NCBI GenBank assembly: GCA_050251945.1
Contig: JBFWLW010000006.1
Location: 96,039 to 160,038 of the forward strand
Direction of reading: 5' to 3'
DNA length: 64,000 bases
Origin: Deferribacterales bacterium
GTDB taxonomy: Bacteria > Chrysiogenota > Deferribacteres > Deferribacterales > Geovibrionaceae
The translations under genes were made by a program, and so were the position numbers. Positions within the stretch are counted from its first letter, which is position 1, and every line of letters begins with the position of its first letter. Under the pieces are notes generated by a model. The model did no database searches. It was given only the letters and a program-made list of their open reading frames with translations, and was not told the origin of the DNA. Shown in pieces: positions 2,355-32,626 of this stretch.

Positions 2355-4088
2355 ATGGAAAATACGTTCAACATCGAAGAACACCTGAGAACATATACAG
2401 CAGGCTTCTCGCAGCCGCAGGTGCCTCACGGGGCGTTCAGGTCTTTCATCGACACCGAACTGAAATATTGCGGACATTTGAACAAAAGCTATGTCCAGCA
2501 GTACGGACGGATATTCCACCTGCTGAGAGACAAAATAATACTTCCCAATCATAATAAATTTAATCTGCTTCCCGTCTTTGAGGAACTGGCAAACCTTATG
2601 CGCAGAAGCGGCATAGTTCTGCCGCCCGCAGAGAACGGACAAAGGATAATCAACGCTTTCAAAAACTCATACGACGACAACGACACCTACTGGAAACTGA
2701 ACATTCTGCGCATGGACATGGTCGTAAGATCGTTCATGAACTGCTCTGATAAAGCGGAATTTCTGGAAAAAATGTCGTGTCTTAAGTCTTCCGAATGTTT
2801 CAGAAATAAAGACGAACTGCGTTTCTTTGCACAAAACCTGAAAATGCTCTTCCCTTCGGCGGAAGAATTCATGGCGTACTACGCAAAAATATTCACTCCG
2901 GCATATTCCGAAAGAGATATCACAGCTTTTAAAGCGGGAATTATCTGGGTAGTGGAAATATCGTGGGGTATCGCATACAAGGAACACCGCGCCCACATGG
3001 CGCTGATGGAACCGCTCATAGGTGTTCTGAACGGGGCGTTGAAAAAGCAGTATGACGAAGCCGTGTTCTATCTGCATTTCCCGCTAAGCCACATATACCT
3101 GAACCTCTGCCACACCCAGACAGAGTTTAAGGCTTTCAACGAAAAGGTCGAAAAGCCGATATCCGCATATATGCCGGTAAACATGAACAGGTGGAACATC
3201 AAACCTGTTCAGCGCAAAAACAGCAATAAACGCATAGGCTTAGTGTTCGACAGACTTGTCGGAAGCTCACCTGTCAAATTGCTGATATCGCTCCTTAACT
3301 ATATGAAAGACGAAAAATATGAGCTGTACGTTTACGACATGGGCTATGTTGAAAAGGCGCCTTCGCAGAAAGAATACATCGACGAAGTCCTCGCCGCCGG
3401 TGCAAAATACACCAACGGACACGAGCTGGCAAATTCCGGCGCAGACAGATACTACAGCCATTTTGAAAAATGTGCGGCACTCAGAAATGCTGTGATAAAA
3501 GATGAAATAGATATCCTTATCGCCACAGGCAACAGAACTCAGACAACCTTTATGCTTGCCGCCAGAACCGCACCTGTGCAGATGTACTGGGATCACGGGA
3601 ACCATGAATATGACGTTGCCGGAATAGACAAGCGCATCTGTCATTTTGACGACGGGTACAAAAACGAATTCGTGTTCTCCCGCTTCACCCTGCCGATGCT
3701 TCCGAAATACCTCGCTCCCGACGAAGAGAAGAAAAAAACCGAGGCGGCTGAGATAAAGAAAAAACTCCCGCAGCATAGGGTTGTTCTGGGCAGTATCGGG
3801 CGCATTATGAAACTTTCCGATGAATATCTGGAGACAGTTGCCGATATATTAAAACAGAACCCCGATGCTGTATACCTTGCCTGCGGAGACGGTCCCATTG
3901 CGGAAAAACGTGTGAAAGTCCGCGAGCTGGGCATTGAGGATCGCTTTATCTTCACAGGGTTTGTGGATCCTCACATATACGGGCACGTTATAGACATCTA
4001 CCTGAACACTTTCCCGCTCGCAGGCGGCGAAAGCGTTAACGAATTCAGAGCCAAAGGTGATAATAAATATGTCGTCTCTCTCAACTGA
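2355..4088 (+). CDS. GT41-like (OGT/SPINDLY/HMW1C-type) glycosyltransferase with no obvious TPR array
   Basis: DEIDILI...AARTAPVQMYW, GSIGRIMKLS, DRFIFTG and DIYLNTFPLAGG resemble the GT41 catalytic motifs (DILVD...RPAPVQVxW, N..K, DIYLDTFPYNGG). The N-terminus appears helical. Confidence 0.7.
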   Translation: MENTFNIEEHLRTYTAGFSQPQVPHGAFRSFIDTELKYCGHLNKSYVQQYGRIFHLLRDKIILPNHNKFNLLPVFEELANLMRRSGIVLPPAENGQRIINAFKNSYDDNDTYWKLNILRMDMVVRSFMNCSDKAEFLEKMSCLKSSECFRNKDELRFFAQNLKMLFPSAEEFMAYYAKIFTPAYSERDITAFKAGIIWVVEISWGIAYKEHRAHMALMEPLIGVLNGALKKQYDEAVFYLHFPLSHIYLNLCHTQTEFKAFNEKVEKPISAYMPVNMNRWNIKPVQRKNSNKRIGLVFDRLVGSSPVKLLISLLNYMKDEKYELYVYDMGYVEKAPSQKEYIDEVLAAGAKYTNGHELANSGADRYYSHFEKCAALRNAVIKDEIDILIATGNRTQTTFMLAARTAPVQMYWDHGNHEYDVAGIDKRICHFDDGYKNEFVFSRFTLPMLPKYLAPDEEKKKTEAAEIKKKLPQHRVVLGSIGRIMKLSDEYLETVADILKQNPDAVYLACGDGPIAEKRVKVRELGIEDRFIFTGFVDPHIYGHVIDIYLNTFPLAGGESVNEFRAKGDNKYVVSLN

Positions 4089-4971
4089 ACACAAACTGCC
4101 GGAAATAACCGTTCCGGAAGACTATAATTATCTTGCCTTCTTTATTTCACTCAACTGCAATCTGAAATGCCATTACTGCATTAATCTTAACGATAAAAAC
4201 TCTTCCAGAAAGGACATGGCGAAACACCACATGTCAGGTTCCGACTGGGCAAAGGCTATAAACAGGCTTTACATAGGCAGGGACGATCTTCCGGTCACCA
4301 TTCAGGGCGGAGAACCTACCATTCATAAAGACTTTTACCAAATAGTCAACGAAACCGACGACAGTATAAAACTCGACCTGTTAACAAACATGGCATTCGA
4401 TCCGGAAGAGTTCATCCGGAACGTTCCCGCATACAAATTCACCCGCGAGGCGAAATACGCGGCAATACGCGTCAGCTATCACCCCGGGTACAACGACATA
4501 GACGTTCTCATAAAGAAAACTCTGCGTATGGCGGAAGCCGGATTTTATGTGGGGCTGTATTCCGTTATGGTGCCGGAGAACAAAGAACACATAGAAGAAG
4601 TTATGGCTCGCTGCAAAGGGATCGGCATAGATTTCCGCGTTAAGGAATATCTGGGCTTCGATGGCGAAAAATGGCACGGGCAGTATAAATACATGGACGC
4701 CATAAGTCAGAACGTCCGCAAAAACTGCATGTGCAGAACCACAGAGCTGATAGCGGGTCCCACGGGACACATTTTCCGCTGTCACTCCGACCTTTATGCG
4801 AACAGAAGCGCCATCGGGCATATACTCGACCACGATTTCAAAATCGAGCAGATTTTCCGTCCGTGCGAATGGTACGGATTCTGCAATCCGTGCGACATAA
4901 AAGTCAAAACAAACAGATTCCAGATATTCGGACACACAAGCGTCGAGATAAAGGACGTACATGACCGCTGA
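4069..4971 (+). CDS. Radical SAM protein with Twitch/SPASM-like C-terminus
   Basis: CNLKCHYC, GGEP, C-terminal CMC...GPTGHIFRC...C...CNPC. ATG 4069 preferred over GTG 4057 because of the RBS position. Confidence 0.88.
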   Translation: MSSLSTEHKLPEITVPEDYNYLAFFISLNCNLKCHYCINLNDKNSSRKDMAKHHMSGSDWAKAINRLYIGRDDLPVTIQGGEPTIHKDFYQIVNETDDSIKLDLLTNMAFDPEEFIRNVPAYKFTREAKYAAIRVSYHPGYNDIDVLIKKTLRMAEAGFYVGLYSVMVPENKEHIEEVMARCKGIGIDFRVKEYLGFDGEKWHGQYKYMDAISQNVRKNCMCRTTELIAGPTGHIFRCHSDLYANRSAIGHILDHDFKIEQIFRPCEWYGFCNPCDIKVKTNRFQIFGHTSVEIKDVHDR

Positions 4972-6022
4972 TAAATATGCAATAGACAGCCACAAACTGA
5001 AATATCATCCGGACAGGGTTGCCCAGTTTCTGAAAACAGGGGACACTGCGCCTGTCTATGTGGAAATTTCCCCCACGGCCTTCTGTAACCACAGATGTGT
5101 GTTCTGCCATTACAACTACATAGGACATGAAGGCAGCTTTGCAAAGGGCAGAATGCTCAGCCTTATCGACGAGCTTGCGGATGCAGGAACAAAATCCGTT
5201 GTTTTTGCGGGAATAGGCGAACCGCTGCTGAATCCTGAAACCGTACCTGCTGTGGTGAAGGCAAAAAAACTCGGAATTGACGCAGGCATGAGTACCAACG
5301 GCGCATTAATGAAAGACGGACATATCCCTGAACTGGTACAAAACCTGACATGGATACGTTTCTCATTTAACGCCGCCACACCCGAAAAATACGCGGAAAT
5401 TCACCATACAAAACCTGAAGACTTTGAAAAAGCTCTTGTGAATATAGAAAAACTTGCGAAAGAAAAAAAGCGGGCAGGTGCGTCCGTAACTATTGGTCTG
5501 CAATTCATATTGCTGTCGGATAATCTGAACGGAATAGATTCTCTTGTGGGGCGGGTCAAAAAAGCCGGAGCCGATTATTTCTCAATGAAACACTTCTATG
5601 AGCATGAAAAAAATTCAATGAAATGTTCGTCAATAAACGAAGAACAGGAAAATATGCTGAAAGCTGTTTCGGCAAAATATTCCGACCCGAAATTCAGCGT
5701 TATTCTCCGCAGCCGTGAAAACCTGAACAGGACACGGGTATATGACAAATGTATGGGGCTGCCTTTCATCGTCTATATCAGGGAAAACGGGGACGTTTAC
5801 ACCTGTTTTTCCTACCAGCACGATGAAAAAACCGTACTTGGAAACATAAACAAATCAACCTTCGCCGATATATGGAAATCCGGCGCTAAAAAGGATGCTG
5901 TTGACTATATAAACAACTGCATTGAAAAGAACAACTGTCAGCCGAACTGCCGCCATCATCAGATAAATAATTATCTGTGGGAGCTCACGCATCCTTCGGT
6001 TGAACATATAAACTTCATTTAG
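4961..6022 (+). CDS. Radical SAM/SPASM protein
   Basis: CNHRCVFC, GIGEP, STNG; C...RENGDVYTC...LGNI...C...CQPNC. Confidence 0.9.
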   Translation: MTADKYAIDSHKLKYHPDRVAQFLKTGDTAPVYVEISPTAFCNHRCVFCHYNYIGHEGSFAKGRMLSLIDELADAGTKSVVFAGIGEPLLNPETVPAVVKAKKLGIDAGMSTNGALMKDGHIPELVQNLTWIRFSFNAATPEKYAEIHHTKPEDFEKALVNIEKLAKEKKRAGASVTIGLQFILLSDNLNGIDSLVGRVKKAGADYFSMKHFYEHEKNSMKCSSINEEQENMLKAVSAKYSDPKFSVILRSRENLNRTRVYDKCMGLPFIVYIRENGDVYTCFSYQHDEKTVLGNINKSTFADIWKSGAKKDAVDYINNCIEKNNCQPNCRHHQINNYLWELTHPSVEHINFI

Positions 6023-6031
6023 AAGGCGAAA

Positions 6032-6811
6032 ATGCAAGAGACTGCAAAAAACATACGAAGAAACATAATACGCATGGCAAACGCTTCAAAGAGTCCGCAC
6101 GTCGGCTCGGCACTTTCGTGCGCGGACATTCTTACAGTACTCTATCACAATATTTTAAATCTGCCGGAACCCGCAGACGAAACAAGGGATTACTTCCTTC
6201 TGTCAAAAGCCCATTCCGCAATGGCGCTGTACAGCACTCTCAATTCAAAAGGGTTTCTGAGCGATGAACACATGATGAGCTATTACCAGAACGGAGGGAT
6301 ACTTCCGGCACATACCGACAGGTTTACAAACGACTACGTTGAAATTTCAGCAGGAAGTCTGGGACACGGTCTGCCCATCGGGCTTGGTATTGCAAAGGCA
6401 ATGAAACTCCAGAAAAAGCCCAACAGGGTGTTTGTGCTGATGGGTGACGGAGAAAGTCAGGAAGGTTCCGTTTGGGAAGCGGCAATGCTCGCGCCGAAAC
6501 TGGAACTGAACAACCTCACTGCGATGATAGATTATAACAACCTGCAAGGATACGGACGCGCTAAAGAACTGGTCGCATACGAACCGGTCAGAGACAAATG
6601 GGAAAGTTTCGGCTGGGACACAGTGTGCATAAACGGGCATGACTATGACGCAATTTCGGATGCTCTCTCATCCCCATCCGGCAGACCGAAGATGGTAATC
6701 TGTAACACTATAAAAGGTAAAGGCGTTTCCTTCATGGAAGATCAGCTTATCTGGCATTATTACATTGTCACCGACGAGCATATGAAGAACGCTCTGGAAG
6801 AGTTATCATGA
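6032..6811 (+). CDS. Transketolase-like, N-terminal (ThDP-binding) subunit
   Basis: SPHVGSALS, LSKAH, GSLGHGL, ThDP motif GDGESQEGSVWEA...DYNN, TIKGKG. Confidence 0.93.
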   Translation: MQETAKNIRRNIIRMANASKSPHVGSALSCADILTVLYHNILNLPEPADETRDYFLLSKAHSAMALYSTLNSKGFLSDEHMMSYYQNGGILPAHTDRFTNDYVEISAGSLGHGLPIGLGIAKAMKLQKKPNRVFVLMGDGESQEGSVWEAAMLAPKLELNNLTAMIDYNNLQGYGRAKELVAYEPVRDKWESFGWDTVCINGHDYDAISDALSSPSGRPKMVICNTIKGKGVSFMEDQLIWHYYIVTDEHMKNALEELS

Positions 6812-7722
6812 GAAACAGAATAGCGAAAAGGATATATGAAAAAGCAAAAGACGATGCGTCTTTATTTCTGATTTCAGGAGACGCTGGACTCGGAGTATGG
6901 GAGCCTTTTCAGAAAGATTTTCCGGACAGATTTCTGAATCCCGGCGTAAACGAGGCATGCGATGTAGGCATGGCGGCAGGACTGGCACTCTGCGGTCATA
7001 AAGTTGTCTACTACAACATAGCGCCGTTTGTCGTAATGCGCCCCTATGAGCAGGTTCGCAACGACGTATGCTATCAGGAACTTCCGGTCATATTCGTCGG
7101 AACGGGAAGCGGCATAACCTACGCACCGGCAGGAATGACACACTATGTAGTTGAGGATATTGCACTTTGCAGGACACTGCCTAATATGAACATCTTCTCC
7201 CCGTGCGACCCGCTGGAAGCCGACGCCGCATTCGCATATGCATACGAAAGCAGAAACCCCACCTACATCCGTATCCCGAAAAACGGAGAACCTGAACTTC
7301 ACAAATGTCCGATAAAAGATATCACTCTTCCGCAGGTTATCGCGGAAGGCAAAGACGTTCTTCTGATATTCCACGGTTCCATTTCCGATGAAGTTCTTAC
7401 GGCATGCGTCGAGTTGGATAAAAAAGGGATATCCGCCTGTGCGGTTTCAAATCCTTGCGTAAGCACTGTTTCAGAAGCAATTCTGGATATGATAAGTATA
7501 TTTCCGGCGGTTTTCTGTATTGAAGAGCATTTCCAGATCGGCGGGCTGGGAACCATTCTGGCAGATTCGTGCAACCAATTTTCAATACACAAGAAAATAT
7601 ATAAAATGGGCATACGGAACCATTATATACACACTGTCGGAAACAGAGATTTCTTAAGAAAACATTTCGGCATAGATTCGCAGTCAATCGTTACGGCTGT
7701 TTCGGAGGTACTCAATGGGTAA
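6808..7722 (+). CDS. Transketolase-like, C-terminal subunit
   Basis: RFLNPGVNEA...GMAAGLA, RPYEQVRND, GMTHY, EEHFQIGGLG. ATGA overlap with the N-terminal subunit gene. Confidence 0.92.
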   Translation: MRNRIAKRIYEKAKDDASLFLISGDAGLGVWEPFQKDFPDRFLNPGVNEACDVGMAAGLALCGHKVVYYNIAPFVVMRPYEQVRNDVCYQELPVIFVGTGSGITYAPAGMTHYVVEDIALCRTLPNMNIFSPCDPLEADAAFAYAYESRNPTYIRIPKNGEPELHKCPIKDITLPQVIAEGKDVLLIFHGSISDEVLTACVELDKKGISACAVSNPCVSTVSEAILDMISIFPAVFCIEEHFQIGGLGTILADSCNQFSIHKKIYKMGIRNHYIHTVGNRDFLRKHFGIDSQSIVTAVSEVLNG

Positions 7723-8377
7723 ACTGGTGGAGATCATAACAAAACTGCATAAGAAAACCCAAAGGGACTACGTTGGAAGAATGGTCGACGAAAAAACACA
7801 CTGTATGGACGTTGCAAAGCAGTATGGCGCCGATTACTGGGACGGAGACAGGCGCTACGGATACGGCGGGTATAAATATGACGGACGCTGGAAATCAGTT
7901 GCGGAAGACCTTATCCGCATGTACGGACTGACAGACGATTCAAAAATCCTTGATGTAGGCTGCGGAAAGGCTTTTATTCTTTACGAAATAAAGAAAATTC
8001 TGCCCGGCTGCCGGATTGCGGGTCTGGACATATCCGAATACGGACTTGCAAACGCAAAAGAGGAAATAAAAGAATTCCTGTTCAGACACGACGCAACAAA
8101 ACCTCTTCCGTTCGGCGACAAAGAGTTCGATCTTGTATTCTCCGTTACAACTTTGCATAACTTTAAAATTTACGAACTCAAAACTGCATTGACAGAGATA
8201 GAGCGTGTCGGCAAACAGGGATATGTCATGGTAGAGGCATACAGAAACTCAGTGGAGCTTTTCAACCTTGAATGCTGGGCGCTGACCTGTGAATCCTTCT
8301 TCCGTCCTGACGAATGGATATGGCTCTATAAAGAATTCGGATACACAGGCGATTACGAATTTATATATTTTGAGTGA
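7715..8377 (+). CDS. Class I SAM-dependent methyltransferase
   Basis: ILDVGCGKA, GLDISEY, LPFGDKEFDLV; YWDGDRRYGYGGY N-terminal motif. Confidence 0.88.
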   Translation: MGKLVEIITKLHKKTQRDYVGRMVDEKTHCMDVAKQYGADYWDGDRRYGYGGYKYDGRWKSVAEDLIRMYGLTDDSKILDVGCGKAFILYEIKKILPGCRIAGLDISEYGLANAKEEIKEFLFRHDATKPLPFGDKEFDLVFSVTTLHNFKIYELKTALTEIERVGKQGYVMVEAYRNSVELFNLECWALTCESFFRPDEWIWLYKEFGYTGDYEFIYFE

Positions 8378-8386
8378 TACCTTCCC

Positions 8387-9493
8387 CTATATCTGCTTCA
8401 TGAGCGCCATGCAGTCTTTAACGATAACATCCATATTATCGTAATGATATTTTCCCATTCTGCCAAGGCTGTAGCAGTCTTTGGGGAGCATGGACAGATA
8501 TGAGGCGGCTCTGCTTATCTCCGACTTTATCGGGTAAGGATACAGCTTATTATTAAAACTGGGGAACTCTATTCCCAAAAGAGTATCGTTCGCCTTATAT
8601 CCTGTAAGTATCTTGTATTCAACCACTCTCGTATAAGGCTCATCCCCTGCGTAATGTATGAAATGATAGGGATCGGGAGTAACCCTCTCAACAGGCAGTA
8701 TCAGCTTTATGAAGTCTCGTCCTATGTATCTCAGTTCGCCCAGACAGTAATCAAAAACACTGTCTATGGAGGCGGTATTTATTACTACATCACCGCTGTG
8801 CCACTCTCCTGCCGCATATACTCTTTTGTTATCAAGATCAAACTGTTCAACGGGAGAATTGAAACGGACGTCGCACCCCTGAACGCATATCTCAAAATAA
8901 TCGTTATATCCGTTGAGTTTCACCGGATATGCAATGAGTTTCTGCCCCTCGAAACACTGCTTTGATCCTGTTTTCAAAGTTGCGCCTTTCGGGGAAAAGC
9001 TGAACTCGTCCAGCTCTTTATTATTCTTTACCTGCCACATTTTTTCAGAATATGTATGGATAAATTTATTATAAAGCGTTTCCCCTATGGAATTCTGCCA
9101 GTACTCCTCAAAGTTCTTTGAATCATCCACGCCTTTTCTGCTGTCAAGTTCGTGCCTGATCTTGTCATAATCGGGCATATCCTTTATCTCGTCTTCATGT
9201 ATCGGATATGTATAGAATCGGTCGTCCTGCGAGACATAGGTCATCGTGTGGTGGCTAAGCTCCCTGAGCTCAAGAAATCTGGTAAAATAGTCATGAACAT
9301 ACATTTCGTGAAGATTTATAAGAAGATGATGCGGACCGAACGTATAAGGGTGTCCATGGTAATAATAAGTTCTGCACCCGCCGCCGAGAACGTCCGATTT
9401 TTCCAGAAGTTTAACTTTGAATCCTTTTTCTCTGAGCATAAGAGCGGCAGTGCATCCACTGAAACCTCCGCCGATTATAAGTGCGCTTTTCAT
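8387..9493 (-). CDS. FAD-dependent NDP-sugar pyranose-furanose mutase (UDP-galactopyranose mutase-like)
   Basis: IIGGGFSG, LGGGC, TFGPHH, YSEKMW, YTRVVEYK, YPYP, LGRMGKYHYDNMD parallel Glf motifs. Confidence 0.75.
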   Translation of the reverse strand: MKSALIIGGGFSGCTAALMLREKGFKVKLLEKSDVLGGGCRTYYYHGHPYTFGPHHLLINLHEMYVHDYFTRFLELRELSHHTMTYVSQDDRFYTYPIHEDEIKDMPDYDKIRHELDSRKGVDDSKNFEEYWQNSIGETLYNKFIHTYSEKMWQVKNNKELDEFSFSPKGATLKTGSKQCFEGQKLIAYPVKLNGYNDYFEICVQGCDVRFNSPVEQFDLDNKRVYAAGEWHSGDVVINTASIDSVFDYCLGELRYIGRDFIKLILPVERVTPDPYHFIHYAGDEPYTRVVEYKILTGYKANDTLLGIEFPSFNNKLYPYPIKSEISRAASYLSMLPKDCYSLGRMGKYHYDNMDVIVKDCMALMKQI

Positions 9494-9514
9494 GTATATC
9501 TCCCGAAGAAAATG

Positions 9515-10264
9515 TTATTTAAGTAAATTTACGAATTCTGATATATCAACTTTTATTTCCGATTGTGTCTGAAAATTCTGCCATTCTGCGGCAAGATGCA
9601 TTATTTCAACACTGCGGTTGTAAAAATCTTCATATTTTATCAAAGATGTCAGAACCTTTATATATGCTTCCGTTCCGTTTGCACCGGAAGAATATATCCC
9701 GAATATGGAATCATAATTCTTAAGTCCTGAGTAATATACCTGTATGATATCAAGCGGGGAATTTATCTTCATCCCCTGCTTTTCTGCAAGCCAGAATATA
9801 AAAGCGTGCCTGCTTTCAAAATTTATTTTTAAGCTGTTAAAAAAGCCCATGGGCATAAAGCCTATCGGCGACCCGAACATTGAGAGTTTGCCAAGATTTG
9901 CGAGGAAGAAAAAGAATCTGTTGGTACTGTTAATAAAAATATCCGAACGGTACGCGTAAACATAGCCTTTGTCTTCAACATTGATGATTCTGTCCTTATT
10001 TCCGCGGCGGATAAGTTCACGCCCGATATCTGACGTACCGCTGTCCGCAAAAACAACATTCTCATTAACTTTAAAAGCCGCCTCCAGTACATCGCAGAAG
10101 ACGGGAACAGATGCGTCGTCGAGGTCCTCACAACCGAGCACCTTCATTCCGGTTCCAGAGCTGTAAGGCTCAAATCCTGACACATTTCCGCTTTTGATCG
10201 AATAAACGATACAGGCGTTTTCAACGTCTTCTTTATATTTGTTAAGTGATTCAGGCGAGATCAT
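9515..10264 (-). CDS. Hypothetical protein (249 aa)
   Basis: Long ORF with RBS, in operon and overlapping the upstream gene; no motif recognised. Confidence 0.65.
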   Translation of the reverse strand: MISPESLNKYKEDVENACIVYSIKSGNVSGFEPYSSGTGMKVLGCEDLDDASVPVFCDVLEAAFKVNENVVFADSGTSDIGRELIRRGNKDRIINVEDKGYVYAYRSDIFINSTNRFFFFLANLGKLSMFGSPIGFMPMGFFNSLKINFESRHAFIFWLAEKQGMKINSPLDIIQVYYSGLKNYDSIFGIYSSGANGTEAYIKVLTSLIKYEDFYNRSVEIMHLAAEWQNFQTQSEIKVDISEFVNLLK

Positions 10265-11645
10265 TTTCTTTCCATGAATCTTTTATTTTTGACAGCAATT
10301 CCTGTTTTGTATACTTCTTAAGCCCTGCGGGTCTTTTAACCGGAAAGCCGTAACGCTCTGCTTCCGGCAGGCAAAAATAAGGTCTCATGTTCGCAGGATC
10401 GTAACTTTTCTCAAACAGTTCATTGCCCTCGCGAATAAAAACACCCCAATTTCTTGCAACTGTCCAGCCTTTATATATTTGCGGAAGTTCCACGGCAGAT
10501 TTCAGTAACGCCGCCGTTTCCGCCATTACGTGCCTGATCTCATCACTCTGCGTCTTGATCAGATAATAATCTATCGATTCGTTTTTCAATTCAGATTTCG
10601 CGATACACCTGCAACCTTCTATGCTGCCTGTGACAAAATCATCGTAAATAAGCACTTCTCTGAACTGCTCCGTAAAATCGGGATTTGACGCTAGGCATCT
10701 GTTTTCTCTGCTTGCCGGCATCAGAAGAATGGTTTTATCTCTGTAGTCCCCTCTTGGAATGTTAAAGTTCGCTCTTCGCAGAAATACAGGCGCAAATTTA
10801 TGGTCATACAAAACAGACATAAGATGATCATTATCAAAATAAGTCGGATTTCCAAATCCGTACGCAATGAAAACACCGTCAGGCTTAAGTTTTTTTGATA
10901 TGAGTTCCAGATAATCAAGAAGAGCATCCACTGAGAACTCCAGCAGATTGGCATTTGAGAAAATAATATCGTAACTGATACCGGAGTTTTTCAGAACGTT
11001 CAGTTTCCACCACGGATACTGGACACATCTTTTTTCCGTTTCCACACTTTCGATGTACTGTTCCTGCGGGATATACACGTCGCTATTTCTTGTATAAAAT
11101 CCGTCACAGGAAAAATTCACCTCAGCGGCAGTCTGCCTGAAACCGCTGCCGTAAAGATATGTATTCTGATAATGGTTAAGCATATAAAAGCTTTCACAGG
11201 CTTCCACCTGATGATAACTTATTTCATTATGCCTGCTGAGATAAAACGCCAGCAATCCGTTGCCCGGACCTATATCAAGTATATTCCGGTTAGGCATCTT
11301 CATTATAAGGTTATAGAGCAGCAAATCTTTCAGCATGTTCTCAAACGGAACTATGAGAGGTCTGACATCAAAATGCTGCCTCTGGAATCTCAGAACATCC
11401 ACCGCAACACTGACAAGAATTTCAAGCTCTTTGTCTGAAAGTCCGCCAAGCTCGTCCATTATGGGGGCATATATCCCTTCTGACATAGTGTTCAGTATCT
11501 GTCTTAAATGAGAGATATTTTTCACCCGTACGGGGTAACCGTTCTTTTCAAAAACATCAAGCGAGTGGCGCGCCTTTTCACGCCAGTTGCTAAGCAGTCT
11601 GGAATGCAAATCTTCGTTTTCTCTGTAAAGGTTTATATCAAGCAT
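10251..11645 (-). CDS. SAM-dependent methyltransferase, putative sugar O-methyltransferase, with an inserted Rossmann-like segment
   Basis: ILDIGPGNG, YDIIFSNANLLEF, KLKPDGVF. ATG 11645 (MLDINLY) preferred. Confidence 0.7.
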   Translation of the reverse strand: MLDINLYRENEDLHSRLLSNWREKARHSLDVFEKNGYPVRVKNISHLRQILNTMSEGIYAPIMDELGGLSDKELEILVSVAVDVLRFQRQHFDVRPLIVPFENMLKDLLLYNLIMKMPNRNILDIGPGNGLLAFYLSRHNEISYHQVEACESFYMLNHYQNTYLYGSGFRQTAAEVNFSCDGFYTRNSDVYIPQEQYIESVETEKRCVQYPWWKLNVLKNSGISYDIIFSNANLLEFSVDALLDYLELISKKLKPDGVFIAYGFGNPTYFDNDHLMSVLYDHKFAPVFLRRANFNIPRGDYRDKTILLMPASRENRCLASNPDFTEQFREVLIYDDFVTGSIEGCRCIAKSELKNESIDYYLIKTQSDEIRHVMAETAALLKSAVELPQIYKGWTVARNWGVFIREGNELFEKSYDPANMRPYFCLPEAERYGFPVKRPAGLKKYTKQELLSKIKDSWKENDLA

Positions 11646-14279: not shown

Positions 14280-14282
14280 ATA

Positions 14283-15167: not shown

Positions 15168-15180
15168 TATATAGCTCCAC

Positions 15181-25433: not shown

Positions 25434-26446
25434 ACATTCTCATAACAGGCGGCTGCGGCTTTGTCGGCAGCAGTCTGGCACTGAATATAAAACAGAAATA
25501 TCCGCAATACGATGTGACCGCGCTGGACAATCTCCACAGAAACGGCAGTGAACTTAATATCCCGATACTCCACGAGGCGGGGATAAACTTCATACAGGGC
25601 GACGTGCGCCGACCGGAAGACCTTGAGCCGCTCCGCTATGACCTCATGATAGAGGCGAGCGCGGAGCCGTCTGTAATGGCGGGACTTAACGGCGACGACA
25701 GGTATCTGATGGAGACGAATTTCGGCGGACTGTTCAACTGTGTCCGTTCGGTGCTGGACAACAGCGCAAAACTGATCTTCCTGTCAACCAGCAGAATCTT
25801 CCCCATGTCCGCCATAAACGGGCTGGAATACATTGAAGAAGCGTCCCGCTACACCATGAAATATGGACACGGCATCGCGGAGAACTTCCCGAAAGAAGGG
25901 ACACGCTCCCTTTACGGCATGAGCAAATATGCGGGTGAGCTTCTGATAGCAGAATATGCCGAGATGTTCGGGCTTAAGTCTATAATAAACAGATGCGGGC
26001 TTCTGGCGGGCAAAGGTCAGTTCGGCAAAACCGATCAGGGAGTTGTTACCCACTGGGCGGCAAGCTACATTTACGACAAGCCGCTAAGCATCTTCGGAAA
26101 CGGAAAACAGGTGCGCGATGTTCTGAACGTGCGCGACCTCTTCCGCCTCATTGACATGCAGATGCACAATTTTGACAGGTTCCGCAACGAACTCTTCAAT
26201 GTTGGCGGAGGCATAAACAACTCGCTGTCCATATTTGAACTGGACGCGCTCTGCAAGAAACTGATCAGAAATAAAGAGGTGCCGTTCATGCCGGAACGGG
26301 TACTGGATATAAAATATTACGTCACAGACAATACAAAGATACAAAGTTTCGGCTGGTCGCCTGAAATTTCAGCGGAGGAAACTCTGAAAGAGATAACAGA
26401 CTGGCTGAAAGAGAACAAAGAGGAACTGAAATGGATATTTGCCTGA
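25430..26446 (+). CDS. NAD-dependent epimerase/dehydratase, CDP-paratose 2-epimerase-like
   Basis: [40 protein letters not shown] 25430 overlaps the upstream TGA. Confidence 0.85.
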
Positions 26447-27492
26447 TAACCGGAAGCGGCGGACTGATAGGCTCGGAGGCGGCGGAGTTTTTCTCTGCGC
26501 ATTTTGACAAAGTGATAGGCATCGACAACGACATGCGCTCCTATTTCTTCGGACAGGGAGCGTCAACCTCGTGGAACGTTGCCCGTCTTTCGGAAAAACT
26601 CAAAAATTATGAACATTTCAACATAGACATCAGAGATTTTGAAAAACTGGAAAAACTCTTCTCGGAATACGGCACGGATATAAAGTTCGTTCTGCATACC
26701 GCGGCACAGCCCAGCCACGACTGGGCGGCGAAAGAACCCTTCACTGATTTCGGCGTGAACGCCAACGGTACGCTGAACACTCTGGAAGCCGCAAAGAGAC
26801 ACTGCCCCGATGCGGTCTTCATCTTCACATCCACAAACAAAGTATACGGGGATACGCCGAACCTTCTGCCTCTGGTGGAGCTTGAAACACGCTGGGAAAT
26901 TGATGAAAGTCACCCCTATTTCGCCAAAGGCATAGACGAAACCATGTCTATAGACAATTCAAAACACTCCATTTTCGGCGCAAGCAAGGTTGCGGCGGAT
27001 GTCATGGTTCAGGAATACGGACGCTATTTCGGCATGAAAACTGGGGTTTTCCGCGGCGGATGCCTGACAGGCCCCAACCACTCCGGCGCTCAGCTTCACG
27101 GTTTTCTGAGCTACCTGATCAAATGCGCGGTCACCGACACCCCCTACACCGTTTTCGGCTACAAGGGCAAGCAGGTGCGCGACAACATCCACTCTTTCGA
27201 TATGATAAATGCTTTCCGCCATTTTTATAAAGCACCCCGCTCCGGCGCAGTGTATAACATGGGAGGAAGCCGGCACAGCTGCTGTTCCATGCTGGAAGCC
27301 GTCGCTATGGTCGAAAAGCTGACCGGCAGACCGTTCCGCCACACATACACGCAAGACAACAGAAGCGGCGACCATATCTGGTGGATAAGCGACGTTTCAA
27401 AATTTAAAGCCGACTACCCTGAATGGGACTATACGTATAATGTCGAACAGATTATTTCCGAAATATATGATACTATGAAACAAAGATTCTGA
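26431..27492 (+). CDS. NAD-dependent epimerase/dehydratase, CDP-paratose/tyvelose 2-epimerase-like
   Basis: [47 protein letters not shown]. Confidence 0.88.
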
Positions 27493-27500
27493 GGTTCATT

Positions 27501-28604
27501 TTGAGAGAATACACTATTGAAGACATCTCCTACACAATAACCGAATACTGCCCCGGACCATGCCGTTACTGCTCTATATGGAAGCAGGAGGACAGGCGCG
27601 GAGAAGAACTCACCGATGCAGAACTGGACAGCATCTTCTCCTCAAAACACCTCGATCTGAAAAAGGTTCACCTCACAGGGGGCGAACCCCACATGAGCGA
27701 CACCTACCTGCGCGTTGTGGACAGCATCTACCGTTTCCACGACAGCGTTGTAATAGATTCGCCCATAACGGGCTGGTTTCCCGAAAGGCACGAAGAGATA
27801 GCGAAATACGTTCTCAAAAAGCACCCGCTCTATCGTCTGGATATCTCCCTCGACGGCGACGAGGAGACCAACGCAAAGATACGCCTTCGCAAAGACGGCT
27901 TTAAATCGGCGATGGAAACCCTTGAGCGCCTGAAAAAACTGAAAGGACTGGTTCTGCGCTTTCAGTTCACTATTTACAAAGAAAACCTGCATCTCATCGA
28001 ATGGATATACAACTTCGCAAAAGAGATGGGCGTGGGGCTTTATATCGGCTACGGACGGTTCAGCAGCGAACGCTATAAGAACACACAGGACAATCTGGAA
28101 AAATGCACCCTGAACAAGAACAGTTTTATCTGGACCGACGACGAGCTGAAACTGATAGACGAACAGCTTGTAAAGATAGGCTACGACAAAGGGCGCTACA
28201 GAAGCAAATATCTCCTGCAAAAAGCAGTTTACGAAGGAGAGAAGATAGACTTCAACTGCTATATGGGCGGTCGGAGTATAGATATCGACCCATACGGCAA
28301 CGTATTCCCATGTCTTCTGTGGCTGAACTATCTGAAAATGGGCAATGTGCGCAAAGCCGGCAGTCTGGACAAGGTTCTCGAAGACGATCAGGCGCAGGAC
28401 GTTCTCACCATGATACGCTCCAAACAGTGCCATGAGGACTGCCTTTACACCTGCGCAAACAAAATGACGCTTATCAACCCTGAGATACCAGCCGTCGGCA
28501 TGATACGGTATCAGGGAAAATACGGATACATCTTCAGCGAAAAGGACGTCATCCCCGTTAAACCGTGGTGGTATGACGAATACGTCCAGAGGGGCATAAT
28601 TTGA
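27501..28604 (+). CDS. Radical SAM/SPASM protein
   Basis: CPGPCRYC, TGGEP, ISLDG; CYMG...IDPYGNVFPC...MGNV...CHEDCLYTC. Confidence 0.9.
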   Translation: MREYTIEDISYTITEYCPGPCRYCSIWKQEDRRGEELTDAELDSIFSSKHLDLKKVHLTGGEPHMSDTYLRVVDSIYRFHDSVVIDSPITGWFPERHEEIAKYVLKKHPLYRLDISLDGDEETNAKIRLRKDGFKSAMETLERLKKLKGLVLRFQFTIYKENLHLIEWIYNFAKEMGVGLYIGYGRFSSERYKNTQDNLEKCTLNKNSFIWTDDELKLIDEQLVKIGYDKGRYRSKYLLQKAVYEGEKIDFNCYMGGRSIDIDPYGNVFPCLLWLNYLKMGNVRKAGSLDKVLEDDQAQDVLTMIRSKQCHEDCLYTCANKMTLINPEIPAVGMIRYQGKYGYIFSEKDVIPVKPWWYDEYVQRGII

Positions 28605-29659
28605 TCTGGTTCGACCTTGTTACGCCGAAATCCGTTATGTTCTTCCGCCCCTTTATAGAGGGCATAAAGGCGCGCGGCAAAACCGTTCTCGTCACTGCAC
28701 GCGAAGGAGACGGCTATAAAGAGGTGGTTGACCTGCTCAACCTCTATAAAATCGAGTTCGTGAACCGCGGATACTTCGGCGGTGCGAATCTCGGAGACAA
28801 ACTTAAGGCATCAATTCACCGCCAACTTGCGCTGATGGAATACATCGAAAAATGCAGTATAACCAAGCTGGTCTGCCTTTGCAGCGTGGACGCCAACCGC
28901 GTTGCTTTCGGGCTTGGTATACCGATAATCAATTTTTACGACATCCCCCTTTCAGACCATACGGCAAATTTCCGCAAAGCTCTGCCGCAGGCAAGGCTCA
29001 CGCTGCCCCTTTCAACAAAGGCGTTCAGACCGTACATGGTACCGCAGAGCATTTTCGAGCGCTTCTCGCTGGAACCGGAACAGATATTCTCATACAATTT
29101 TCTCGACGTCGTGGCATGGCTCCACGACTTTGAGCCGGATATCAACTTTTTCAGAGACTTTCTGAAATCCCGCGGACTGGACACGAACAAAAAAACAATT
29201 GTGGTGCGCGAGGAAGAGTTTAAGGCGTCATACGTAGGGAAAAAATATCCGGTGCTTTACGAAGGGCTTGAGCTGATAAAAGAAAAAATGAACGTCAACA
29301 TCGTCCTTATCCCCAGATATGAGGCGGAGCCACTTAAAGCGATGTTTCCCTATGCCACAGTTCTTGAGGAAAAGATGGTTATCCAGCACCTTCTGGCGTT
29401 CGCCGACCTTTTCATCGGCGGCGGCGGAACGCTTAACTCAGAGGCGTGCTACTTCGGCACACCCGTAATATCCACCCGTTCGTTTATCTCCCACTATGAC
29501 AAACTGCTGATTGACAGCTCGCTCATGGAAAAAGCGGACACAGCGGAAGAGCTTCTTGAAAAAGCACAGCAGATAATATCAAAACGCCATGATCCGAAAC
29601 CGCTGTTCGATACCATGTCTTTTGATATGGACAGCATTATTGAGGAGATACTTAAGTAA
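28601..29659 (+). CDS. DUF354-family putative glycosyltransferase (GT-B-like)
   Basis: MIWFDLVTPK..FF, VTARE, RVAFGLGIP, VVREEE..ASY, FIGGGGTLNSEA..GTPVIS. Confidence 0.78.
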   Translation: MIWFDLVTPKSVMFFRPFIEGIKARGKTVLVTAREGDGYKEVVDLLNLYKIEFVNRGYFGGANLGDKLKASIHRQLALMEYIEKCSITKLVCLCSVDANRVAFGLGIPIINFYDIPLSDHTANFRKALPQARLTLPLSTKAFRPYMVPQSIFERFSLEPEQIFSYNFLDVVAWLHDFEPDINFFRDFLKSRGLDTNKKTIVVREEEFKASYVGKKYPVLYEGLELIKEKMNVNIVLIPRYEAEPLKAMFPYATVLEEKMVIQHLLAFADLFIGGGGTLNSEACYFGTPVISTRSFISHYDKLLIDSSLMEKADTAEELLEKAQQIISKRHDPKPLFDTMSFDMDSIIEEILK

Positions 29660-29865
29660 TGTTTACGGAAACGAATATCCGCTCCATCCTGAAAGCCGTT
29701 TCATGGCGGTTCTTCGGAACCATGACAACTATCATAATAGTCTATGTTATGTTCAAACGGCTTGATGTCGCCATTTTCACAGGACTTCTGGAAACCGTAT
29801 CCAAGATAGCTCTGTATTTTGTTCATGAACGCATCTGGAACAAAATACCCGTCGGAAAGCAGTAA
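29659..29865 (+). CDS. DUF2061-family small membrane protein
   Basis: [10 protein letters not shown]...T...[10 protein letters not shown]. Confidence 0.85.
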
Positions 29866-30758
29866 TGGATCTTTCATATCTGGACAGGCTGGAGGCGGAA
29901 AGCATACACATAATCCGCGAAGCCGCGGCAGAAGCGCAAAAACCGGTCATGCTCTATTCCATAGGAAAAGATTCGTCCGTGATGCTTCATCTCGCCATGA
30001 AAGCGTTTCATCCGGCAAAACTTCCTTTCCCCGTCATGCACGTTGACACCAAATGGAAATTCCGCGAAATGATATCTTTCCGCGACGAAACGGCAAAACG
30101 TCTGGGGCTTGATCTTATCGTATACACAAACCCCGAAGGTCTGGAAAAAGATATCAATCCTTTCATACACGGCAGCAAACTGCATACGGACATAATGAAG
30201 ACCGATGCGCTGAAGCAGGCGCTTAACATGCACGGATTCGATATGATATTCGGAGGCGCAAGGCGCGACGAGGAAAAATCCAGAGCGAAAGAACGCATCT
30301 TCTCTTTCAGAGACTCAAACCACAGGTGGGATCCGAAAAATCAGCGTCCCGAACTCTGGGGACATTACAATACAAAGCTGAACAAAGGCGAAAGCCTCCG
30401 CGTGTTTCCGCTTTCAAACTGGACAGAGCTTGACGTCTGGTTCTATATCCTTCGGGAGAAGATTCCGGTCGTTCCGCTGTATCTGGCGAAAGAACGCCCC
30501 GTTGCCGACGTTGACGGAGTTCTCATCATGGCAGACGACGGCAGGATGCCAAAACAATACAATATCACTATGAAATCGGTGCGTTTCCGCACACTTGGCT
30601 GTTATCCGCTGACGGGTGCTGTACCCTCAGAGGCTTCCACTCTTGAGCAGGTTATCGAAGAGATGATGATGTCCACCCTTTCGGAACGGCAGGGACGGAT
30701 AATCGACTTTGACCAGTCAGGCGCTATGGAAAAAAAGAAGACGGAAGGCTACTTTTAA
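29865..30758 (+). CDS. cysD: Sulfate adenylyltransferase subunit 2
   Basis: [52 protein letters not shown]. Confidence 0.97.
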
Positions 30759-32626
30759 TGAGCAGACTTGAAGAATACATGGCAAAGGATGCGGCGAAAC
30801 AGATGCTGCGGTTCATAACCTGCGGAAGTATCGACGACGGAAAGAGCACGCTGATAGGCAGACTGCTGCACGAATGCAGGGCAGTTTACGACGACCAGAT
30901 GGCGGCTGTCGTAAAAGACAGCAAAACATCCGGCACAACAGGCGACGAACCCGATCTGGCGCTTATAGTCGACGGACTGCTGGCGGAACGCGAACAGGGC
31001 ATAACAATAGACGTTGCTCACCGCTATTTCTCCACATCAAAAAGAAAGTTCATAATTCTCGACACCCCCGGACATGAGCAGTATACCCGCAACATGGCAA
31101 CAGGTGCATCAAACGCAGACCTCGCCGTGATACTTATAGACGCACTGAAAGGCATCAGCCCCCAGACCGTACGCCATTCCTATATAGTCAAACTCATGGG
31201 AATCAAAAACGCAGTTGTCTGTATAAATAAGATGGACGCAAAAGGCTACAGCAAAGATATTTTCGATAAGATAGCCGGAGATTATGCAAAAACAGCCGAT
31301 AAAATAGGTCTGTCTTACAGAATAATTCCCGTTTCAGCCCTTAAAGGCGACAACGTGACATCAAAAAGCGATAAAATGCCATGGTACGACGGCGAGAGCC
31401 TTATCGAAATTCTGGAAAGCGCTGAACCCGATGCGCCTTCATCTCACGGTCATCTGAGACTTCCCATACAATACGTTCTGCGCCCCGACAAAACTTTTCG
31501 CGGTTTCTGCGGACGTATCGAATCCGGCGGCATCAGCACAGGAGACAGTATCACCGTTCTGCCGTCCGGCGTGTCCACCCGCATCAAATCAATCTCAATC
31601 GGCGGCAGAAATGTTGAAACCGCTTCCGCTCCGCTTTCAGTGACATTCACAACCGAAGACGAAGTGGACATAAGCCGCGGAGACATGATAGTTCATGACA
31701 AAAAATCCGTCCTGTTCGGAAGCGGGTATACCGCAAACCTTATCTGGATGGATTCCGAGCCGCTGAAACTCAATTCGCGCTATATTCTGAAATGTGCGGC
31801 TGGAAGTATAGGCGCTCATATAAACACCATCTTCAGCAGAACGGACATATCGACACTGAACAGCGAACCCGCATCGTCACTCGGCATAAACGACCTTGCG
31901 TCGGCGGGCATTTCTCTGGACGCTTCCAGACCGTTCGACACCTACGACATGTGCCGCGCAACAGGCAGTTTTATCCTTATAGACAGGATAACGGGCATGA
32001 CAGCCGCCGCAGGCATGATAACTGCATCCGAAAGCCCAAGGAACGTCGTGTGGCATACGCACTCGGTAAATCGTCAGCAGCGCATCGACCTGAAATGTCA
32101 CAAACCTGCAGTGCTTTGGCTCACCGGCTTAAGCGGTTCAGGAAAATCCACAATAGCAAACGCCCTTGAGAGTACGCTAAACAGTTCCGGCATACACACA
32201 TATCTTCTCGACGGCGACAACGTTCGCCACGGACTCTGCAAAGACCTCGGTTTTTCCGCGCAGGACAGAGAAGAGAACATCAGACGCATCGGCGAAACAG
32301 CAAAACTTTTCGCAGACGCAGGTATCGTGACCATAACGGCATTCATCTCCCCTTTCGCAAAGAGCAGAGACCACGTAAGAGCTATCATGCAGGAGGGAGA
32401 ATATATTGAGGTATTCATCGACGCACCCATAGACGTATGCGAACAGCGAGACCCGAAAAATATGTATAAGAAGGCACGCAGCGGTGAAATAAAAGATTTC
32501 ACTGGCATAAACTCACCGTACGAAATTCCGCAGGCGCCTGAGGTACACATACGCACAGATATAATGTCCGTAACTGAATCGGTGGAGATGATTCTGAGTT
32601 ACCTCAGGAAAAAAGGGATAATTTAA
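30758..32626 (+). CDS. cysNC: Bifunctional sulfate adenylyltransferase subunit 1 / adenylylsulfate kinase (NodQ-like)
   Basis: CGSIDDGKSTLIG, EREQGITIDVA, DTPGHEQYTRNM, NKMD; C-terminal WLTGLSGSGKST, LDGDNVR, FTGINSPYE. Confidence 0.96.
   Translation: MSRLEEYMAKDAAKQMLRFITCGSIDDGKSTLIGRLLHECRAVYDDQMAAVVKDSKTSGTTGDEPDLALIVDGLLAEREQGITIDVAHRYFSTSKRKFIILDTPGHEQYTRNMATGASNADLAVILIDALKGISPQTVRHSYIVKLMGIKNAVVCINKMDAKGYSKDIFDKIAGDYAKTADKIGLSYRIIPVSALKGDNVTSKSDKMPWYDGESLIEILESAEPDAPSSHGHLRLPIQYVLRPDKTFRGFCGRIESGGISTGDSITVLPSGVSTRIKSISIGGRNVETASAPLSVTFTTEDEVDISRGDMIVHDKKSVLFGSGYTANLIWMDSEPLKLNSRYILKCAAGSIGAHINTIFSRTDISTLNSEPASSLGINDLASAGISLDASRPFDTYDMCRATGSFILIDRITGMTAAAGMITASESPRNVVWHTHSVNRQQRIDLKCHKPAVLWLTGLSGSGKSTIANALESTLNSSGIHTYLLDGDNVRHGLCKDLGFSAQDREENIRRIGETAKLFADAGIVTITAFISPFAKSRDHVRAIMQEGEYIEVFIDAPIDVCEQRDPKNMYKKARSGEIKDFTGINSPYEIPQAPEVHIRTDIMSVTESVEMILSYLRKKGII

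Follow-up and report, generated by a model that had tools for sequence, protein, structure and literature searches.

Flagellin glycosylation islands are known from Campylobacter, Helicobacter, Aeromonas and Caulobacter, where strain-variable sets of soluble enzymes are combined with a soluble protein glycosyltransferase (Maf or FlmG) and export genes are missing. Radical S-adenosylmethionine (SAM) enzymes that act on sugars, such as DesII, BlsE, BtrN and AprD4, belong to antibiotic pathways, DesII acting on a thymidine diphosphate (TDP)-sugar, and outside such pathways, to our knowledge, hardly any radical SAM chemistry on sugars has been described. In the biosynthesis of yersiniose and avilamycin, ketosugars linked to a nucleoside diphosphate (NDP) are branched by the thiamine diphosphate (ThDP)-dependent enzymes YerE and AviB1/AviB2, which are of the acetolactate-synthase or E1 type; their keto sugars come from short-chain dehydrogenase/reductase (SDR) dehydratases, not from radical SAM enzymes. 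We know of no described heptose pathway that uses radical SAM enzymes or a transketolase, and, as far as we could find, none of the described flagellin islands contains six radical SAM enzymes, a transketolase or a sulfation module. All of these are encoded in the island analyzed here, which lies between recA and cinA (positions 2355-32626) in a window of 64,000 nucleotides from a Deferribacterales bacterium of the Geovibrionaceae (contig JBFWLW010000006.1, positions 96,039 to 160,038 of the forward strand).

Our best reading is that this island of soluble enzymes makes one or more unusual heptose-derived sugars and attaches them to protein, most probably flagellin, to which we assign a probability of about 0.55. 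The sugar is likely methylated, sulfated and probably heptose-derived. The evidence comes from a cassette that recurs in other phyla (the genes at 4057-16242 plus a GT9-like gene), from the first gene of the island and its relatives near flagellin genes, and from what the island does not encode. The cassette consists of radical SAM enzymes A-D, an altered split transketolase, methyltransferases, a short SDR, a mutase resembling UDP-galactopyranose mutase (UGM) and a GT9-like transferase. The genes of the island and its flanks, inventoried from a listing of open reading frames (ORFs), Pfam, NCBIfam at curated cut-offs and a scan for the CxxxCxxC motif, are as follows (protein lengths in amino acids, aa).

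1186-2208, minus strand: recA, left flank of the hot spot (Pfam RecA 449.8 bits; 69-98% identity across 20 relatives)
2355-4088, plus strand: GT41-like soluble glycosyltransferase, 577 aa, by predicted fold (helical 1-276, then GT-B)
4057-4971, plus strand: radical SAM A, 304 aa, compact tail with 7 Cys (PF04055; ATG at 4069 as alternative start)
4961-6022, plus strand: radical SAM B, 353 aa, core of the cassette (PF04055 and SPASM)
6032-6811, plus strand: split transketolase, N chain (Transketolase_N 113.9 bits; PDB 6yak 204.7 bits)
6808-7722, plus strand: split transketolase, C chain (Transket_pyr and Transketolase_C; PDB 6yaj 143.5 bits)
7715-8377, plus strand: class I SAM methyltransferase, 220 aa (Methyltransf_31/11/25)
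8387-9493, minus strand: UDP-galactopyranose-mutase-like flavoenzyme (GLF 89.9 bits; TIGR00031 115.6 bits; UGM 3hdq 97.6 bits)
9515-10264, minus strand: 249-aa protein of no recognized family (no Pfam or NCBIfam match; no ortholog in the 30 cassette loci or 8 relatives described below)
10251-11666, minus strand: 471-aa protein, possible methyltransferase (DIGPGNG motif; no Pfam match)
11638-12420, minus strand: FkbM methyltransferase (PF05050 72.9 bits)
12417-13208, minus strand: short extended SDR, 263 aa (Epimerase 67 bits)
13209-14279, minus strand: radical SAM C, 356 aa (PF04055)
14283-15167, minus strand: FkbM methyltransferase (PF05050 54.6 bits)
15181-16242, minus strand: radical SAM D, 353 aa (PF04055 and SPASM)
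16449-17840, plus strand: sulfotransferase, 463 aa (Sulfotransfer_1 55.4 bits)
17833-19056, plus strand: 407-aa protein with a weakly WbbI-like C-terminal end (NF007322, 20.4 bits only)
19053-20657, minus strand: 534-aa protein with a WbbI-like C-terminal end (NF007325 43.4 and NF007326 37.6 bits, far under the cut-offs)
20835-21731, plus strand: GT9-like (heptosyltransferase-family) transferase (PF01075 49.2 bits; PDB 3tov 56 bits; WaaF 24.3 bits)
21728-22864, plus strand: GT2 glycosyltransferase (PF00535)
22866-25433, plus strand: fusion of GT2, B12-binding and radical SAM domains, 855 aa (PF00535, PF02310, PF04055)
25388-26446, plus strand: extended SDR, 352 aa (Epimerase 111.7 bits)
26431-27492, plus strand: extended SDR, 353 aa (Epimerase 112.7 bits)
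27501-28604, plus strand: radical SAM F, 367 aa (PF04055 and SPASM)
28601-29659, plus strand: DUF354 protein (PF04007 133.2 bits)
29865-30758, plus strand: CysD, sulfate adenylyltransferase small subunit (NF009214 502.6 bits, cut-off 413)
30758-32626, plus strand: CysN/CysC fusion for synthesis of 3'-phosphoadenosine 5'-phosphosulfate (PAPS) (NF004035 854.6 bits, cut-off 715)
32623-33849, minus strand: cinA, right flank of the hot spot (CinA and MoCF_biosynth; present in 21 of 21 genomes)

The ORFs of the island overlap or abut their neighbors, and only four intergenic gaps exceed 25 bp, none of which was found to hold a convincing small ORF. Because the genes are packed and most of their orthologs keep their order in other genomes, the island is not a chance pattern. 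The G+C content of its genes is 39-50%, compared with 51-52% for recA, cinA and a PilT-like gene that sits past recA. None of the 26 island proteins has more than one transmembrane (TM)-like segment, and a scan with Pfam and for TM segments found no flippase, polymerase, ABC transporter, chain-length regulator, initiating transferase, ligase or export family in the island. By Pfam, the island also lacks any aglycone, cyclitol, nonribosomal peptide synthetase (NRPS), polyketide synthase (PKS), resistance or export gene. No NCBIfam equivalog was reached by any of its radical SAM, glycosyltransferase, mutase or transketolase genes.

An earlier note on this DNA, made from the sequence alone, had listed 27 genes in the same interval, where 26 ORFs were counted here. 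Its split transketolase, Glf-like mutase, sulfotransferase and CysD/CysNC agree with Pfam and NCBIfam, and its three extended SDRs are all present, the one at 12417-13208 in a short form. Three of its four methyltransferases are recognized by Pfam (7715-8377 and the two FkbM proteins) and the fourth (10251-11666) by the DIGPGNG motif alone, while its figure of seven glycosyltransferase-type proteins is reached only if the DUF354 protein and the two weak WbbI-like proteins are counted. The six radical SAM proteins that it named, the B12 fusion included, were confirmed, as each has PF04055 over the cut-off and exactly one CxxxCxxC. For the cysteine-rich SPASM/Twitch-like tails that it gave to all five stand-alone enzymes, PF13186 (SPASM) exceeds its cut-off in three (B, D and F); A and C have no Pfam SPASM match but carry invariant cysteines beyond the SAM-cluster motif, seven in A besides C34/38/41 (alignment of 13 sequences) and five in C (family alignment).

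Among the radical SAM enzymes, B is the one with the clearest solved relative. It has four invariant cysteines beyond the SAM cluster in a twitch-like arrangement and, judging from these, is predicted to hold one auxiliary cluster. By profile its best solved relative is DesII (44.7 bits), followed by BlsE, viperins, MoaA and BtrN, and in a fold search with its model (pLDDT 83.9) DesII came first (E 2.2e-14, TMq 0.62-0.68) and SkfB, SuiB and BlsE after it. Radical SAM B is nevertheless not a member of the DesII family, since it scores 46.6 bits against TIGR04426 where 450 are needed; the two proteins are about 16% identical, and B stands in the context of a cell-surface or protein glycan. Radical SAM A gave only weak matches to solved structures. 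The best NCBIfam matches of the radical SAM proteins, all sub-threshold, included TIGR04317, a maturase of the tungsten cofactor (81-111 bits, cut-off 380), and maturases for peptides made on the ribosome and modified after translation (RiPPs). The six genes are not recent duplicates, as the best pair, B and C, is only 26% identical.

The split transketolase adjoins radical SAM B. Its closest solved relative is the split enzyme of Carboxydothermus hydrogenoformans (PDB 6yak/6yaj, PMC7661550), with which it shares the two-chain architecture. It retains the ThDP-binding GDG...N region and the Glu that activates the cofactor, and the score against the transketolase equivalog (246.8) misses the cut-off of 488. 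What sets the cassette enzyme apart from canonical transketolases is its C chain: in an alignment, the equivalents of H461, E468 and D469 of the Escherichia coli enzyme are replaced in all 20 cassette C chains, in which the housekeeping motif TH.G...GEDG.TH reads G.G...Y.P(A/Q)G.TH or similar. The genome's housekeeping transketolase, a separate, full-length protein, keeps the equivalents of H461 and D469. In the parts of two studies that we could consult, H461 is linked to binding of the substrate phosphate, and D469 and R520 govern acceptor preference (PMC3657141, PMC7661550). The replacement of these residues thus speaks, at least as predicted from the alignment, for an acceptor that is not a sugar phosphate. 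That the chains form an extra housekeeping transketolase supplying sedoheptulose 7-phosphate is unlikely, given the altered acceptor site and the tie to radical SAM B.

The remaining enzymes fit a sugar-tailoring role to varying degrees. The mutase aligns over its full length with solved UGMs and falls short of the TIGR00031 equivalog (115.6 bits, cut-off 303.75), and by these scores it is classed as a divergent member of the GLF family. An ortholog of the 471-aa protein (35% identity) lies between the N and C chains of the transketolase in two Sulfurimonas loci (L029 and L036; about 8600-10000 and 11900-13300), which suggests that the 471-aa protein may work with the transketolase chains. The 263-aa SDR has GxxGxxG at residue 7 and YGASK (YxxxK) at residue 104 and lacks about 50 internal residues relative to the 353-aa SDR; with both motifs retained, the idea that it is truncated at its N terminus was rejected. 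The WbbI-like C-terminal ends of the 407-aa and 534-aa proteins are of the galactofuranosyltransferase type, weakly so in both, and the 407-aa protein is 28% identical to the C-terminal end of the 534-aa protein. The GT9-like protein has 298 aa and matched heptosyltransferase models in parts only.

Outside the cassette, the fusion protein at 22866-25433 has its radical SAM domain at residues 616-778 and stays under the cut-offs of HpnJ (200.3/577.6), BchE (137.2/481) and AprD4 (85.7/500). Radical SAM F belongs to a small, tight family of 54 proteins. It forms a fixed pair with the DUF354 protein, with an SDR in front, and the pair also occurs in a Halarcobacter locus (L017, 17400-19500; 63% identity), where it adjoins Maf. 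The DUF354 protein had no match to solved structures by sequence, and an Atlas search returned DUF354 clusters only.

The radical SAM B family (351-354 aa) comprises 524 proteins at E <= 1e-10, all named only "radical SAM protein." One genome per species was scanned with a 16-sequence alignment of B, which gave 30 loci with full-length orthologs of 32-63% identity. The other cassette genes were then counted in these loci by tblastn (E <= 1e-8 over at least half of the query) and by ORF clustering; cluster counts are lower bounds, since the high-GC loci L033, L037 and L040 lost genes in the ORF filter, and absences mean little in the several loci that are short contigs (3.8-9 kb). Both transketolase chains adjoin radical SAM B in 19 of the 30 loci. 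Orthologs of the 220-aa methyltransferase and true orthologs of radical SAM C (at least 34% identity) occur in 14 loci each, of radical SAM A in 12, of the GT9-like protein in 8 (54-67% identity), of the mutase, the short SDR and the first gene in 7 each, and of radical SAM D, by clustering, in 5 (40-46% identity). Gene order within the cassette is mostly kept.

Cassette proteins are 50-75% identical to those of Campylobacterota, Planctomycetota, Omnitrophota and Desulfobacterota and 32-41% identical to those of Firmicutes. The genomes include Denitrovibrio, Arcobacteraceae, Sulfurimonas, Sulfurospirillum, Planctomycetia, Omnitrophota and Desulfobacteraceae and, at lower identity, Lachnospiraceae, Butyrivibrio and Defluviitaleaceae. 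Homologs from the named genera Seleniivibrio, Denitrovibrio and Chrysiogenes put the genome of the window within Deferribacterota or close to it. Within the phylum of the window, radical SAM B was found in only 3 of 68 genomes. This patchiness, together with 50-60% identity to the proteins of other phyla, indicates on sequence grounds that the cassette probably spread horizontally. The literature on radical SAM enzymes and on glycan and flagellin glycosylation yielded no paper on the cassette or its product and no characterized cluster of this kind, and that on heptoses gave context papers only.

The neighborhoods of the cassette are those of sugar biosynthesis and, in Campylobacterota, of the flagellum. 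The nonulosonic-acid genes for NeuB, CMP-sugar synthase and UDP-GlcNAc 2-epimerase, which are absent from the window island, stand beside the cassette elsewhere. Flagellar linkage was seen in five of the 30 loci, all in Campylobacterota: flagellin and Maf are beside the cassette in L024 and in L034, a Sulfurospirillum locus with an 810-aa flagellin; FliD directly precedes the first-gene ortholog in the two Sulfurimonas loci, with FliS present too in L036; and Maf is beside the cassette in the Halarcobacter locus. In a Marinarcus (L020) and an Arcobacter locus (L021), at about 3000-9000, the glycosylation island adjoins recA with divergent transcription, the same placement in another phylum; the order there is eno, recA, then NeuB, 2-epimerase or CMP-sugar synthase, the GT41-like gene and radical SAM A and B.

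A second line of evidence is the first gene of the island. The AlphaFold2 model of its product (pLDDT 82.4, pTM 0.72) has an all-helical domain at residues 1-276 followed by a GT-B domain, and no TM segment was detected, so that the predicted protein has the soluble architecture of GT41 enzymes, a helical N-terminal domain with GT-B. The matches listed by Foldseek (ranks 1-49) were all SPINDLY, human or bacterial OGT or HMW1C/NGT (best E 1.6e-11), with low TM-scores of 0.28-0.40, as would be expected if the two domains are oriented differently in the model. Unlike GT41 enzymes, the protein has no Pfam GT41 or TPR match, only a weak sub-cut-off GT1 match, and no solved relative was found by sequence (best E 0.18). 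In the Atlas clusters that resemble it, 30-48% of the members carry GT41 or HMW1C domains. As described in the part of the paper available to us, FlmG of Caulobacter crescentus has 596 aa; its N-terminal TPR domain is the part that binds flagellins, and a GT-B domain forms the C-terminal part (PMC7591256); the first gene product is similar to this description in its length and in the combination of a helical N-terminal domain with GT-B.

The link of this protein family to flagellin was examined in 301 Campylobacterales genomes searched with an alignment of the first protein. At E <= 1e-40, the family was found in 41 of them. Up to 9 kb on each side was fetched for 41 of the 43 places, giving 40 stretches (two places in G250 share one); left out were G068, which is the same as L034, and a partial match at a contig end in G079. 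A flagellin gene lies within about 9 kb in 17 of the 40 stretches, which also contain NeuB in 10, CMP-sugar synthase in 6, the cassette in 4-5 and DUF354 in 5. In all five genomes that were checked, 0.1-3.3 kb separate the transferase gene from the flagellin gene with the best score. With 3-4 Flagellin_N places per genome of 1.6-3.0 Mb in these five, proximity by chance would be expected in roughly a few percent of cases, as calculated by arithmetic rather than by simulation. Together with the predicted fold, these results make the first gene a likely flagellin glycosyltransferase. As the island has no export, polymerase or ligase genes, its first product is predicted to have the GT41 fold and the relatives of that product lie by flagellin genes, a target protein in the cytoplasm is favored over lipopolysaccharide (LPS) or an S-layer. 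The genome itself encodes three 797-aa flagellins on another contig (C4: 500-2893, 3349-5802 and 25716-28109; one frame reaches 817 aa), together with a 631-aa Maf (28634-30529), and no sugar-biosynthesis genes were found beside them.

That the precursor is likely a heptose, a point absent from the earlier note, is suggested by gene content. Heptose-activation-type genes (GmhA, HldE, GmhB or HddC type) occur in 9 of the 30 cassette loci: a GmhA-like SIS protein in 5, an HldE-like kinase/nucleotidyltransferase in 8 (in two clusters), a GmhB-like phosphatase in 4 and NTP_transferases in 3 and 2. In the closest relative (G002), a GmhA-like gene is found in the island together with genes for a PfkB kinase and an NTP_transferase, and a split transketolase of its own is encoded there as well. 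The likeness to NDP-heptose pathways extends to the GT9-like gene within the cassette. Elsewhere in the genome of the window, the complete ADP-heptose pathway exceeds or equals its cut-offs (GmhA 211.2/209.45, HldE 522.3/521, GmhB 178/178, HldD 397.5/274.6).

CysD and CysNC were found in the genome only as the island copies, and PAPS synthesis therefore appears, from this gene content, to be dedicated to the island sulfotransferase. In a Denitrovibrio metagenome-assembled genome (L016, 5000-7300) and in the Halarcobacter locus (4753-5625), CysD, CysNC, adenosine 5'-phosphosulfate (APS) kinase or a sulfotransferase accompany the cassette. Sulfation may be a recurrent add-on to the cassette.

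The site of the island is a hot spot of gene exchange. We searched 20 relatives for recA and cinA and located both genes in all of them. The two genes are 30.4 kb apart here, 13.9-37 kb apart in all six same-genus genomes and 13 and 47 kb apart in two genomes of a second genus; the spacing is less than 600 bp in eight relatives, four of the same family and four of other families in the order, and in four the genes lie in separate places. When the island proteins were compared by tblastn with the islands of eight relatives (six of the same genus, two of the second), only the island ends were found conserved within the genus, the content differing between species. An ortholog of the first gene stands at the recA end of all six same-genus islands (35-87% identity), and all six hold the radical SAM F + DUF354 pair (75-98% identity, DUF354 85-98%). 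The G006 island shares radical SAM A and B, the transketolase, the methyltransferase, radical SAM C, the GT9-like gene, GT2, the fusion, the SDRs and CysD/CysNC; the fusion ortholog is 58% identical there and 89% in G002. The stretch at 8387-20657 had no counterpart at the recA-cinA locus in any of the eight relatives. Sugar genes occur throughout the relatives' islands (Pfam, 83 ORFs), and in the six same-genus islands not one of 135 ORFs reaches three TM segments.

Judged from this synteny, the island is a mosaic at a recombination hot spot and not the single assembly line that the earlier note had proposed; its parts would be the four-radical-SAM/transketolase cassette, the radical SAM F + DUF354 pair, the GT2-B12-radical SAM fusion and the sulfation module. 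Other interpretations in that note fared better. Glycan tailoring by radical SAM enzymes, probably of an undescribed sugar, stands as the best reading; the peptide- or cofactor-type neighborhoods that would have spoken against it were not seen, as the orthologs of four radical SAM proteins sit in sugar-biosynthesis neighborhoods; and the proposed surface glycan is narrowed to a cytoplasmic protein target, likely flagellin, by the lack of export genes and the GT41 fold. The island was found to hold neither an integrase nor a tRNA nor any mobile gene, so that insertion by a site-specific mechanism is unlikely and recombination in the conserved flanks is the likely mechanism of gene exchange. The island of G011 (L012), of another genus, has no gene in common with that of the window. 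It contains ManB, ManC, Gmd, WbqC, a formyltransferase and DegT, a set of the GDP-mannose/perosamine type, and an insertion sequence (IS) with an rve integrase at 7175-7897, the sole IS seen among the islands.

These observations can be combined into a scheme. The cell's own heptose pathway would supply the precursor, ADP- or GDP-heptose. Radical SAM B, the DesII-like enzyme, would activate a carbon of the sugar in an oxygen-independent reaction whose product is probably a keto or deoxy-keto sugar, and to this sugar the transketolase would add a two-carbon unit. Such a step would resemble those of YerE and AviB in that a ThDP enzyme acts within a sugar-tailoring cluster, with an enzyme of the transketolase type in this case. 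Radical SAM A, C and D, the SDR and the methyltransferases would finish the sugar, and the mutase would convert it to a furanose form. The GT41-like enzyme would start the glycan, the GT9-like, GT2 and WbbI-like transferases would extend it, and the sulfotransferase, fed by the genome's only CysD/CysNC, would sulfate it. The acceptors would be the cell's three flagellins of about 800 residues, modified in the cytoplasm.

Several points weigh against a heptose-derived flagellin glycan. The order of the reactions and every substrate are ones that we infer. The Campylobacterales relatives share only 28-39% identity with the first gene product, and in 23 of the 40 stretches no flagellin gene lies within reach. 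Flagellar genes do not adjoin the island here, the flagellins and Maf being on the other contig, and the island contains no heptose-activation gene. In the fold search, the RiPP maturases SkfB and SuiB scored almost equal to DesII, and among solved structures radical SAM C matches MoaA best, ahead of SkfB and BlsE. Three further points also speak for the main rival: GT9 enzymes classically act on LPS cores; lipooligosaccharide (LOS)-type assembly does not require a membrane protein to be encoded in the locus either; and in L019 and L022 (Planctomycetia and Omnitrophota) the cassette comes after GT87 and an ABC transporter, a context that points to a lipid-linked glycan there.

According to that rival, which we consider doubtful yet the strongest of the alternatives, the island decorates LPS as a variable outer-core (LOS-type) or O-antigen locus, its soluble transferases having as acceptor either lipid A-core or a lipid carrier on the inner side of the membrane, with the genes for flipping and ligation elsewhere. 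A variable locus between conserved flanks is indeed what O-antigen and LOS loci look like, the G011 island carries a typical O-antigen sugar set, and one Wzy_C/ligase-type gene is present elsewhere in the genome. The Wzx/Wzy or ABC transporter, initiating and ligase genes of O-antigen and capsule loci are, however, absent from the window island, and flippase, polymerase, ABC transporter, chain-length regulator and initiating transferase are missing from the six same-genus islands as well. No Bac_transf gene was found in the genome, in which the only Wzx-type match is sub-cut-off, and the lead transferase, conserved in the genus, has a predicted GT41 fold and relatives by flagellin genes.

It is improbable, though less so than the explanations that follow, that the protein modified in the cytoplasm is one other than flagellin, for instance an adhesin, an autotransporter, a pilin or an S-layer protein. 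The GT41 relatives do include the HMW1C/NGT adhesin glycosyltransferases, and a PilT-like gene lies past recA. In the parts of the sources available to us, autotransporters are described as heptosylated by GT9-family enzymes (PMC4358343), and an anammox S-layer protein as bearing oligo-heptose chains (bioRxiv 10.1101/2020.12.03.409086). No candidate acceptor gene was found in or beside the island, however, and the association across the family is with flagellin (17 of 40 loci). Glycosylation of pilins and S-layers is, moreover, mostly periplasmic and carried out by membrane oligosaccharyltransferases, none of which is encoded in the island.

A secreted glycosylated natural product resembling an aminoglycoside or nucleoside antibiotic would account for the closest solved relatives, DesII and BlsE, being from antibiotic pathways and for a ThDP enzyme and methyltransferases that recall deoxysugar tailoring; it is very unlikely, given the missing aglycone, cyclitol, NRPS/PKS, resistance and export genes, the seven glycosyltransferase-type proteins, a hot spot conserved in every species of the genus and the flagellar, nonulosonic-acid and heptose genes in related loci. 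Least credible of all is that the SPASM-type enzymes mature a peptide or metallo-cofactor beside incidental sugar genes, as the sub-threshold TIGR04317 and RiPP maturase matches and the rank of SkfB and SuiB right behind DesII might suggest, for no equivalog cut-off is reached, the four larger gaps offer no convincing small ORF, and the orthologs keep their sugar-gene neighbors across phyla.

Flagellin glycosylation islands are among the known systems most similar to the preferred reading of a heptose-derived sugar on flagellin, since loci related through the cassette or the lead transferase carry flagellin, FliD, FliS, Maf, NeuB and CMP-sugar synthase. The window island differs from them in its position between recA and cinA, away from flagellar genes, and in lacking a nonulosonic-acid pathway. 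What is new for this window is the recA-cinA hot spot, the extended form of the cassette with four radical SAM enzymes, a mutase and a GT9-like gene, the change in the transketolase site, the sulfation module and the quantified association of the lead transferase with flagellin.

As a single cassette, four radical SAM enzymes and a thiamine enzyme recur across many phyla in loci for cell-surface or flagellar glycosylation, and the cassette likely marks a sugar, and probably reactions, not yet described. A bolder version of the scheme, which is tentative and which we ourselves regard as rather unlikely, is that the DesII-like enzyme and the re-tooled transketolase extend or branch an NDP-heptose in an oxygen-independent manner and, with three further radical SAM enzymes, methylation, furanose contraction and sulfation, produce new higher-carbon sugars on giant flagellins in anaerobes of at least six phyla. 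The GT41-like family beside flagellin genes is a candidate third class of flagellin glycosyltransferases besides Maf and FlmG. The hot spot offers natural swap variants within one genus, in which a comparison of glycan mass with island content could assign functions to the genes.

Beyond the right flank, the rest of the window (36000-64000) contains hisB, hisH and hisA beside pgpA and cinA, followed by about 20 more ORFs.

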